From: Thermotogota bacterium
Lineage (GTDB): Bacteria; Bipolaricaulota; Bipolaricaulia; UBA7950; UBA9294
NCBI GenBank assembly: GCA_039679545.1
Contig: JBDKUT010000029.1
Location: forward strand, 1-6,597
Length of the DNA: 6,597 bases
Direction: 5' to 3'
The first letter of the stretch is position 1. Each line of letters begins with the position of its first letter. The notes beneath the pieces were generated by a model. That model had not been told where the DNA came from and searched no databases. It saw only the letters and a list, made by a program, of their open reading frames with translations. Positions 3,694 to 4,980 of this stretch are shown piece after piece. Position numbers and translations under genes: made by a program.

Positions 3694-4980
3694 CTACGCC
3701 ATGCCGCCGTCCTCGTCCATGGAAGCGTCCTCCCCGTCAGGGAATTCGCTCGATGTAATGCGCATTACGTCGAGCGCGGTCACCACCGCCGAGCCCCCCA
3801 GAACCTCCGCCAAGCTCGGGTGCGTCCGCCCCTCGTCTCCCGAGACGAGCTCCTTGACGTAGAGGCCGCCGTCGGTCACGAGCTCAAGCTCTGCCTCCCT
3901 CGGCCCTGTCATGCGGCCGCGGATCTCGTGCAGCCGACGCTCCCGAACGAGATCGGCGCGCCGGTGCGCCACGCGTCGAGGAGTCCGTTGCCGGATGATG
4001 CCAACGAGACTCTCGAGTGCCTGCCCAAGCGCGGACTCCTCGATCGGTCCGCCGAACGCCACGCGGGCAACGTAGCGCTTCGTGGCGCGCGTCTCTTTCA
4101 CCTGCGCCACGGCTTCTCGGCCCGTCCAGTGCAGTTCCGAGATCTCCACACGCCCGGCCGCCTCACGCGCGAGAACCTCTCTGAGCGCGCCCAGGTCGAG
4201 CGATCGGACTTGTGGGGCCACGATCTCAAGCACAAACGGACGTCCGGTCCCGAGCATCCGCGCGTCGATGTCCTCCCGCCCTGCTCCGTGGAGGTGGGCT
4301 CCCTTCGCCCGTGCCGCCTCCACGAACGGGCGAGCCACGATCTCCTCGACCGATTCCGCGTACTGTTTGCCCGTCCCTCCGCACGCTTCGCACCCGCGCC
4401 CGCCGCAGCGGCGGCACGGCCAGTGCGTCTGCGGGATTCCTCGAACGAGCTTCCGGTATCGGCCGTAGAGAAAGAGCGAGGCCACCCTCACCGTCACTTC
4501 ACGTCTTCCGAGGTCCACGGTGAACGCGACGTGGGGGTTGCGGAAGTCGACCGTTCCGCGGCCCACAAGCGCTTCGAACGCCTTCCCCACACAACGGTTG
4601 AACGCGTGCCTCAGCGGCTCCGCGGTGCCCGTGGGAAACCGCTCCAGAAAGTACGCCTCGACCTCGACCAACCTCGGCGTCGGCCGCATGCCAAACAGGT
4701 AGGTATCGAACTCGATTCCCGCCGCGCGTTCAGCGGCCCGTCGCGCCCACTCCTCGACCTCGCCGAACAGGCCGCCGCACACCCAGCACGTGCCCCCGGG
4801 ACCATCGGCTTCAGCAGGCGCAAGGAGGGATCGAAGGGCTCGCCCGCGATCGGCGTTCGACATCCCCCGGCCGAGCTGGCCGAACGCCCCCCCGAGGCAC
4901 GCGTCGCAGATCGGACCGGCGGCAGCGATCTCACGAGCCGCTGGCAGCACACTCTGCGCGTTGAAACGCCCGTCGCTCAT
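3694..4980 (-). CDS. pus10: tRNA pseudouridine(54/55) synthase Pus10, archaeal type, 428 aa
   Basis: N-terminal CDACLG...CWVCGG cysteine pairs and a THUMP-like region. Catalytic domain has LYGRYRKLVRGIPQTxW, SVEE, HGAGREDIDARMLGTGRPFVLEI (catalytic Asp codon at 4270-4272), KRY, thumb loop QRTPRRVAHRRADLVR, GGLYVKELVSGDEGRTxPSL and LDV. These are Pus10-specific and distinct from TruB. The start overlaps the upstream stop as ATGA (4977-4980). Confidence 0.95.
   Translation of the reverse strand: MSDGRFNAQSVLPAAREIAAAGPICDACLGGAFGQLGRGMSNADRGRALRSLLAPAEADGPGGTCWVCGGLFGEVEEWARRAAERAAGIEFDTYLFGMRPTPRLVEVEAYFLERFPTGTAEPLRHAFNRCVGKAFEALVGRGTVDFRNPHVAFTVDLGRREVTVRVASLFLYGRYRKLVRGIPQTHWPCRRCGGRGCEACGGTGKQYAESVEEIVARPFVEAARAKGAHLHGAGREDIDARMLGTGRPFVLEIVAPQVRSLDLGALREVLAREAAGRVEISELHWTGREAVAQVKETRATKRYVARVAFGGPIEESALGQALESLVGIIRQRTPRRVAHRRADLVRERRLHEIRGRMTGPREAELELVTDGGLYVKELVSGDEGRTHPSLAEVLGGSAVVTALDVMRITSSEFPDGEDASMDEDGGMA
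3747..3776. repeat. 30-bp near-perfect palindrome within the 3' end of pus10 (possible operator)
   Basis: CGCTCGATGTAATGC|GCATTACGTCGAGCG: 14 of 15 dyad pairs match, with a single mismatch at 3754/3769. Perfect 14-bp core GTAATGCGCATTAC at 3755-3768. The repeat is seen directly; its function is only inferred. Confidence 0.7.

Follow-up and report, generated by a model that had tools for sequence, protein, structure and literature searches.

An archaeal-type Pus10 as the probable T-loop pseudouridine synthase of Bipolaricaulota

We analyzed an entire contig of 6597 bases (C29; JBDKUT010000029.1 of assembly GCA_039679545.1), called the window in the following, which carries a pus10 gene for a tRNA pseudouridine(54/55) synthase in a bacterial genome. 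TruB and 5-methyluridine at position 54 (m5U54) are treated as near-universal bacterial features, and TrmY is an archaeal SPOUT enzyme that N1-methylates pseudouridine (Psi) 54. The window protein is a full-length Pus10 and an ordinary member of its family. We consider it probable that this enzyme is functional and most likely the sole T-loop pseudouridine synthase of its host, that the T-loop carries 1-methylpseudouridine 54 next to Psi55 (m1Psi54-Psi55), and that an old capture from archaea displaced TruB. The observations behind this reading are the family membership, the intact catalytic and specificity residues, purifying selection and a phylum-wide pattern of gene presence and absence, and from them we infer which two positions are modified, that Psi54 is methylated, that trmY and pus10 were transferred together and in which direction they moved. 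The features of the window are the following, with residue numbers referring to the Pus10 protein.

3694..4980, minus strand: pus10, tRNA pseudouridine(54/55) synthase, an open reading frame (ORF) of 428 amino acids (aa) with an ATG start (TIGR01213, 465.4 bits)
4777..4908, minus strand: N-terminal zinc ribbon (C25, C28 ... C65, C68), from alignment conservation
4513..4749, minus strand: THUMP domain, residues 78-156 (PF22023 Pus10_THUMP_arc, 65.8 bits against a cut-off of 28)
3757..4473, minus strand: catalytic domain, residues 170-408 (PF21238 Pus10_C, 213.5 bits against 27, profile positions 1-231 of 232)
4348..4416, minus strand: forefinger loop of full length, with the CxxC..CxxC knuckle (C189, C192, C197, C200) and up to V211, from the alignment
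4270..4278, minus strand: R235-E236-D237 of the GREDxD motif including the catalytic Asp, without variation in 97/97 sequences and throughout a second alignment of 112 rows
3958..3990, minus strand: thumb loop QRTPRRVAHRR (331-341) with H339-R340, from the alignment
4977..6596, minus strand: 3' part of lhr (long Lhr helicase), from Lhr profile matches; its stop overlaps the pus10 start
2796..3692, minus strand: gene of a sigma-70 family factor (Pfam regions 1.2, 2 and 4), 1 nt past the pus10 stop
1724..2806, plus strand: rlmN (TIGR00048, 373.5 bits against a cut-off of 290), convergent with the sigma factor gene
1..1758, plus strand: ligA (NF005932, 730.8 bits against a cut-off of 369), its 5' end cut by the contig end

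The match to TIGR01213 (the Pus10 equivalog of NCBIfam; COG1258; cut-off 200) extends over residues 15-408 and profile positions 3-401 of 402. In the same kind of profile search no TruB model matched the protein, and the Cbf5 models reached 19.3-19.7 bits, far below their cut-offs of 238-242. An earlier note on this DNA had described an intact 428-aa Pus10 ORF, assigned it to the Pus10 family and listed all recognisable motifs of Pus10. The ORF list, the ATG start and the full-length profile match bear out the first point and the comparison of hidden Markov models (465 bits for TIGR01213 against some 19-20 for Cbf5) the second, while each motif was located in the protein by alignment: GRYRK at 173-177, IPQTHW at 182-187, GREDIDARMLGTGRPF at 234-249, QRTPRRVAHRR at 331-341 and GLYVKELVSGDEGRT at 372-386. 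In the alignment of 97 sequences (A1) C65 and C68 of the zinc ribbon as well as Y303 (97/97) are invariant, and C25, C28 and L403 are conserved in at least 90%; Y303 and L403 are also kept in the 112-row alignment, where H339 is found in 52 of 52 other Bipolaricaulota rows and in 48 of 48 archaeal rows. The ratio of nonsynonymous to synonymous substitution rates (dN/dS) of pus10 against three orthologues was 0.098, 0.134 and 0.146. We further built an AlphaFold2 model of the protein on the 97-sequence alignment, which reached a mean predicted local distance difference test (pLDDT) of 93.7 and a predicted template modelling score (pTM) of 0.89. Its best match in the PDB is human PUS10 (2v9k) with an E value of 1.8e-30 and a template modelling (TM) score of 0.75 over the whole chain, followed by TruA (2.5e-10) and by Cbf5 and TruB (near 1e-8). 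A sequence search of the PDB gave 2v9k as the sole match (103.9 bits over residues 165-409).

Pus10 of Methanocaldococcus jannaschii is said to be a dual tRNA Psi54/Psi55 synthase, reportedly through work of Gurha and Gupta from 2008 and of Joardar et al. from 2013. For the comparison with this enzyme we mapped residues by a constant offset from the catalytic Asp, with no direct alignment to that sequence. On this mapping R235, D237, Y303, H339-R340 and L403 of the window protein would correspond to R273, D275, Y339, H376-R377 and L440 of M. jannaschii, and the forefinger loop to its ffl1 (C227-R231) and ffl2 (C238-V249). According to the parts of the study available to us (PMC3753934), ffl1, ffl2, the Arg and the Tyr are required for Psi54 and not for Psi55. 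The two proteins thus appear alike in the catalytic Asp of GREDxD, in a Cys-rich forefinger of full length and in the His-Arg of the thumb (PMC3753934, same parts, with the offset mapping), and both belong to TIGR01213 and combine zinc ribbon, THUMP and catalytic domain. The partner enzyme TrmY is encoded in the genome of the window as well. Unlike in M. jannaschii, however, the host is bacterial and pus10 lies away from trmY, in a string of lhr, pus10 and the sigma-70 gene. Human PUS10, although the best structural match, shares 21% identity, has no Cys knuckle in the forefinger in our alignment and differs further in the larger size of its accessory domain. The core fold of pseudouridine synthases is common to Pus10 and bacterial TruB (1k8w, E value 7.9e-08), and Pus10 would do the same job at U55, but TruB is a different family. 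To our knowledge, TruB lacks a forefinger loop and leaves U54 untouched.

Next to pus10, the genome of the window holds trmY on contig C80 (2-775, minus strand), which scored 170.3 bits with PF04013 (cut-off 25.5) and 200.5 bits with the equivalog model NF002560 (cut-off 183). The TrmY frame measures at least 258 aa, extends as a tail some 60 aa past the TrmY domain and is cut by the end of the contig, and a cluster of six tRNA genes (C80:2326-2898) is located about 1.5 kb from trmY on the same 4-kb contig. Profile searches of this assembly, which is 93.55% complete, gave no match for TruB or TrmA, and the best match for TrmFO reached 59 bits against a cut-off of 428.65; we take this 663-aa frame for an MnmG-type paralogue, an assignment that is unconfirmed. 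As the genome is 93.55% complete, the absence of TrmA and TrmFO is not proven. In many bacteria truB follows rbfA. On contig C149 (L171) we found a string of infB, a DUF503 gene and rbfA with no truB after it; about 670 nt without a family match follow (3724-4396 holds two overlapping open frames of 221 and 179 aa, neither with a family match) and then a formate-tetrahydrofolate ligase gene. The T-loop sequence GTTCRA is present in 48 of the 50 predicted tRNA genes, the two exceptions being over-long, doubtful predictions. For TrmI, the m1A58 methylase (PF08704), no match of this genome exceeded the cut-off of 26 bits (best 19.8).

We extended the analysis to 184 species-representative Bipolaricaulota genomes, all of one class and including the genome of the window. 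Pus10 (TIGR01213) was found in 169 of the 184 genomes, with scores above the cut-off in 167, and it is present in 52 of 54 genera, in all 11 family-level groups and in every one of the 71 high-quality genomes. TruB_N (PF01509) was over the cut-off in 0 of 184, while the same model matched in 14 of 14 control genomes, and the full TruB model (TIGR00431) matched in 0 of 41 related genomes but in 14 of 14 controls. A lone TruB_N match of 19.6 bits (G065) was rejected as TruB because it belongs to an enzyme with an S4 and a PseudoU_synth_2 domain. The m5U methylase family of TrmA (PF05958) gave only three marginal partial matches of 23-38 bits among the 184, none of them in the genome of the window. 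TrmY (PF04013) is present in 144 of 184 genomes and in 66 of the 71 of high quality, and TrmFO (TIGR00137) in nine, all in genus g32. The suggestion of the earlier note that truB had been replaced therefore agrees with the survey, both in the host itself and among the 184 genomes. Its suggestion of an archaeal-style Psi54/m1Psi54 holds for the gene set, through the trmY identified above (200.5 bits against 183), and the modification itself is predicted. Taken together, the phylum probably modifies its tRNA T-loops in the archaeal way, as judged from gene content.

TrmY and TrmFO are mutually exclusive across the survey, which is the pattern expected if both act on nucleotide 54. Of the 11 g32 genomes, nine have TrmFO, ten have Pus10 and none has TrmY, and family f7 has Pus10 in 18 of 19 with TrmY and TrmFO each in 0 of 19. 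In all six g32 Pus10 sequences examined we observed P183A, R190P, Q206L, Y207A/S and I238A, and in addition two of the six differ at H339 and five at R385. Neither P183 nor Y207 varies in the 52 other Bipolaricaulota or the 48 archaeal rows, and Q206 and Y207 would sit in the segment that corresponds to ffl2 on the offset mapping. In Thermococcales a U54 methylase forming m5U54 coexists with a Pus10 that makes Psi55 only, as stated in the available parts of PMC3753934 and PMC7912444. The Pyrococcus furiosus enzyme offers a parallel to g32, where TrmFO replaces TrmY and the forefinger region of Pus10 is altered. The parallel is not exact, since the forefinger loop of P. furiosus is shortened (PMC3753934, available parts) whereas that of g32 keeps its length and changes residues; the Pus10 of the window itself differs from P. 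furiosus in being of the unaltered forefinger type. Because a single lineage is concerned, the changes in g32 beside TrmFO may serve as a lead and not as a statistic. In genus g24 of family f7, which forms a long branch, R-EF, with a gap of one residue, stands in place of the conserved GRPF that follows the catalytic motif.

The window comes from a metagenome-assembled genome (MAG) of 2.35 Mb in 163 contigs, with estimates of 93.55% completeness and 3.62% contamination. The closest encoded relatives of its Pus10 fall into two sets: 32 MAG loci with 50-90% identity, mostly assigned to Candidatus Bipolaricaulota, Bipolaricaulis or Acetothermia, and 48 archaeal loci, mostly Methanomicrobiales, with 43-50%. 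Some of the 32 are labelled 'uncultured Thermotogae', 'Thermotoga sp.' or 'uncultured bacterium'; those kept after the redundancy filter group within Bipolaricaulota in the tree. As both the closest bacterial relatives and these oddly labelled rows group there, we assign the host to Bipolaricaulota, the lineage at which the earlier note had guessed. In the window the ATG start of pus10 and the TGA stop of lhr upstream share the sequence ATGA, pus10 ends with TAG, and 1 nt later follows the GTG start of the sigma-70 gene. The GC content at third codon positions (GC3) is 0.80 for pus10 and 0.78-0.82 for the neighbouring genes. Profile scores of Pfam and NCBIfam likewise agree with the neighbours named in the earlier note (sigma70, long Lhr, LigA, RlmN), and the ATGA coupling to lhr and the GC-rich codon style it had pointed out are both present. 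For gene order we compared 63 Bipolaricaulota pus10 loci, 19 of which have flanks of only 300 nt and are uninformative for neighbours. Of the 63, 25 have the sigma factor gene immediately after pus10 and 14 an Lhr frame immediately before it, with rlmN and ligA following in many; this neighbourhood is restricted to the window's own family-level clade. Contigs from other public runs bridge the sigma70/pus10 junction (3692/3694; X2, X4) and the pus10/lhr junction (4977-4980; X2, X3, X4). These runs belong to two studies, one of which is a possible source of the MAG. Pus10 also occurs in the single-contig genomes G020, G032 and G035 of the phylum. That pus10 sits in a tight lhr-pus10-sigma70 string beside rlmN and ligA indicates a bacterial contig.

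In order to trace the origin of the gene we calculated two unrooted Pus10 trees, one with FastTree (144 rows) and one with IQ-TREE under a site-mixture model (71 rows). In the FastTree analysis the main bacterial clade (local support 97) is nested among Halobacteriota, with f7 placed elsewhere, and its sister is a six-row group that includes a protein labelled 'Halobacteria archaeon' by NCBI. In the IQ-TREE analysis 28 main and 4 f7 bacterial rows form a group with a Shimodaira-Hasegawa-like approximate likelihood ratio test (SH-aLRT) value of 94; it joins at 97 a group of 18 Halobacteriota rows (93), so that all 18 rows, and not the six of FastTree, are the sister. Rows labelled Thermoplasmata, DPANN and Diapherotrites fall outside this joined group. 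A constraint holding all 34 bacterial rows together was not rejected (log-likelihood difference 4.95, p value of the approximately unbiased test 0.404). A second acquisition of Pus10 by f7 had been considered and was dropped, as four of the six f7 rows join the bacterial clade under the site-mixture model and a single clade is not rejected. A separate acquisition could still apply to genus g24, judging by the tree. The nearest archaeal sequences, from Methanomicrobiales and other Halobacteriota, show 45-48% identity over nearly the full length and form the neighbouring group of the tree. All 61 Halobacteriota genomes sampled carry Pus10, and a control search found it in 0 of 10 bacterial and in 4 of 4 archaeal genomes, in three of these over the cut-off. 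Together with the short stem of the bacterial clade (0.11), these counts favour transfer from archaea to bacteria, all the more as Halobacteriota would come out as the sister group of all remaining archaea if the root were put on the bacterial stem.

Gene order in the archaeal relatives points in the same direction. In 41 of 48 loci there, pus10 is immediately preceded by trmY in the same orientation, with 12-51 nt between them, whereas the two genes are separated in Bipolaricaulota. A further 30 Halobacteriota loci showed a trmY-pus10 gap of at most 314 nt in 16 cases. Methanomicrobiales as a rule show this adjacency, which is found in Methanocellales too, and it suggests an operon for two T-loop enzymes. 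Three f8 genomes have trmY and pus10 10-14 kb apart on one strand. In the TrmY tree, whose archaeal sample holds only Halobacteriota, the Bipolaricaulota proteins form one group (97) beside those of Methanomicrobiales (91). The archaeal operon and the parallel trees argue for a co-transfer of trmY and pus10, and capture of the operon in a single event would be plausible. The earlier note had proposed an archaea-to-bacteria transfer that is now integrated. Transfer is supported, but the event would be old and phylum-wide rather than a recent one into one genome; the integration is evident from the occurrence across the phylum, from the dN/dS of 0.10-0.15 and from a GC3 like that of the neighbours.

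We propose the following course of events. An archaeon related to Halobacteriota would have been the source from which the phylum ancestor acquired pus10, probably together with trmY as an operon, and this capture would have made truB and any U54 methylase dispensable. In present-day cells Pus10 would dock on the acceptor and T-arm by means of its THUMP and zinc-ribbon domains, its thumb and forefinger would pinch the T-loop, and it would isomerise U55 using D237, which is the job of TruB in other bacteria, and with the same residue also U54. TrmY would then N1-methylate Psi54, giving an m1Psi54-Psi55 T-loop instead of the bacterial m5U54-Psi55. Docking, pinching and both isomerisations are proposed because they are published for archaeal Pus10, and are carried over here to the bacterium. 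For the composite scenario, in which one trmY-pus10 capture brought archaeal T-loop chemistry to the whole phylum, g32 exchanged TrmY for TrmFO and reshaped its Pus10 towards Psi55 only, and one family dropped TrmY, we see about an even chance.

Several observations weigh against these proposals. The adjacency of trmY and pus10 was seen in 0 of the 63 Bipolaricaulota loci (19 of them with the 300-nt flanks). Two f7 rows of genus g24 are placed by IQ-TREE on a long branch with a Diapherotrites-labelled (DPANN) row, and, the trees being unrooted, a root on the Bipolaricaulota stem is possible by topology alone. The exchange of TrmY for TrmFO is a single evolutionary event and not a statistical sample, and family f7, having neither enzyme, implies that methylation of Psi54 is not universal in the phylum. 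Root-to-tip distances of Pus10 are 1.34-1.76 in the TrmY-less lineages and 0.71-1.63 in the rest, and given this overlap the idea of a faster Pus10 evolution after loss of TrmY was set aside. No Pus10 was detected in 15 of the 184 genomes and no TrmY in 40, and nearly all surveyed genomes are MAGs. The genome of the window finally holds two PseudoU_synth_2 genes besides Pus10, and such enzymes could in principle have taken over a T-loop site.

Among the other explanations, we give the most weight, though still regarding it as unlikely, to a Pus10 that merely substitutes for TruB at Psi55, with U54 unmodified or modified in few tRNAs and the TrmY homologue methylating another target. The Pus10 of P. 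furiosus makes Psi55 only in vivo (PMC3753934 and PMC7912444, available parts), f7 keeps Pus10 without TrmY and g32 keeps it beside TrmFO, all of which would fit. However, the window Pus10 retains the full forefinger loop, R235, Y303 and H339-R340, features that the available parts of PMC3753934 report as needed for Psi54. TrmY, moreover, acts solely on Psi54 made by Pus10 according to the accessible sections of PMC9508554, and the protein found here passes the TrmY equivalog model. The mutual exclusion of TrmY and TrmFO, too, is better understood if position 54 is the shared target. A main role outside the tRNA T-loop, for example on other RNA or as a non-catalytic RNA-binding protein, has in our view a very small chance, the smallest but one of those weighed here. 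It draws on the non-catalytic roles of nuclear human PUS10 (PMC9957541, available parts) and on the packing of pus10 against a helicase gene on one side and the gene of a sigma factor on the other, but neither the catalytic Asp nor any core residue varies, no enzyme would be left to make Psi55 given that TruB was not found, and the lhr/sigma neighbourhood is limited to one family-level clade.

Bipolaricaulota are often placed deep in bacterial trees. This placement, the presence of Pus10 in every family-level group and a tree that permits a root on the bacterial stem would also suit vertical inheritance from a very early bacterial ancestor with loss elsewhere. We judge this improbable, and only marginally less so than a role outside the T-loop, since the control search found Pus10 in archaeal and not in bacterial genomes (4/4, three over the cut-off, against 0/10), the bacterial clade joins Halobacteriota (97) on a short stem apart from the rows labelled Thermoplasmata and DPANN, TrmY shows the same affinity, and the trmY-pus10 operon belongs to the archaeal relatives. 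That pus10 is an archaeal contaminant or the contig an assembly chimera is hardly credible. The contig is admittedly short and comes from a MAG of many contigs with some estimated contamination, but ligA, rlmN, sigma-70 and lhr of bacterial type share it with gene ends that overlap or abut, the gene order recurs in many MAGs, the single-contig genomes carry Pus10 as well, and contigs from two studies bridge both junctions. An archaeal or chimeric contig, a possibility named in the earlier note, is thus not supported. Weighing all this, we continue to favour a Pus10 of archaeal origin acting at both T-loop positions.

According to the available parts of two recent reviews (PMC7912444, PMC9957541), Pus10, and thereby Psi54/m1Psi54, does not occur in bacteria, and TrmY is listed as archaeal in the part consulted of a SPOUT review (PMC9508554). 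The Bipolaricaulota genomes show the opposite pattern for Pus10. In full-text searches we found no paper on Pus10 in Bipolaricaulota or Acetothermia or on Pus10 replacing TruB in candidate phyla, nor one on pseudouridine in Acetothermia, and a paper that mentions both Bipolaricaulota and pseudouridine treats other matters. In NCBI records, however, one Bipolaricaulota protein already bears the name 'tRNA pseudouridine(54/55) synthase Pus10'. The reservation of the earlier note, that prior documentation of bacterial Pus10 would lower the novelty, therefore applies in part: databases annotate the protein correctly, while the literature searched does not describe it. The unusual features are the bacterial host and the apparent displacement of TruB and of the U54 methylases; the enzyme family itself is known, and the consequence at phylum level is, as far as could be found, unpublished. 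If true, this would be a clean case of a core step of tRNA maturation displaced across domains by a non-orthologous enzyme, and it would demonstrate that archaeal T-loop chemistry is compatible with bacterial translation. Lineages with TrmY, with TrmFO and without TrmY would then be natural variants for mapping how Pus10 acts on both U54 and U55. The result is of relevance, too, where truB serves as a universal marker gene for bacteria.

Some further observations were made. TruA (PF01416) gave no match in 41 genomes up to class level, the genome of the window included; this set contains single-contig genomes at 96-99% completeness, and 13 of 14 control genomes did match PF01416. Psi38-40 may be missing from Bipolaricaulota or be formed in another way, and the apparent lack of TruA (0/41) as well hints that tRNA pseudouridylation as a whole has been rewired in the phylum. 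Concerning the neighbouring genes, the lhr frame of the window comprises only the C-terminal 539 aa (WH4_Lhr, 61.9 bits) and aligns to positions 1022-1529 of the 1538-position Lhr model, and the sigma-70 factor is group-1/2-like, with regions 1.2, 2 and 4 above the Pfam cut-offs. Among RNA data a single run (X8) gave two short pieces with 90-95% likeness to the window. The contig is packed very tightly: the start of rlmN overlaps the end of ligA by 35 nt (1724-1758), and the convergent 3' ends of rlmN and the sigma-70 gene overlap by 11 nt (2796-2806).

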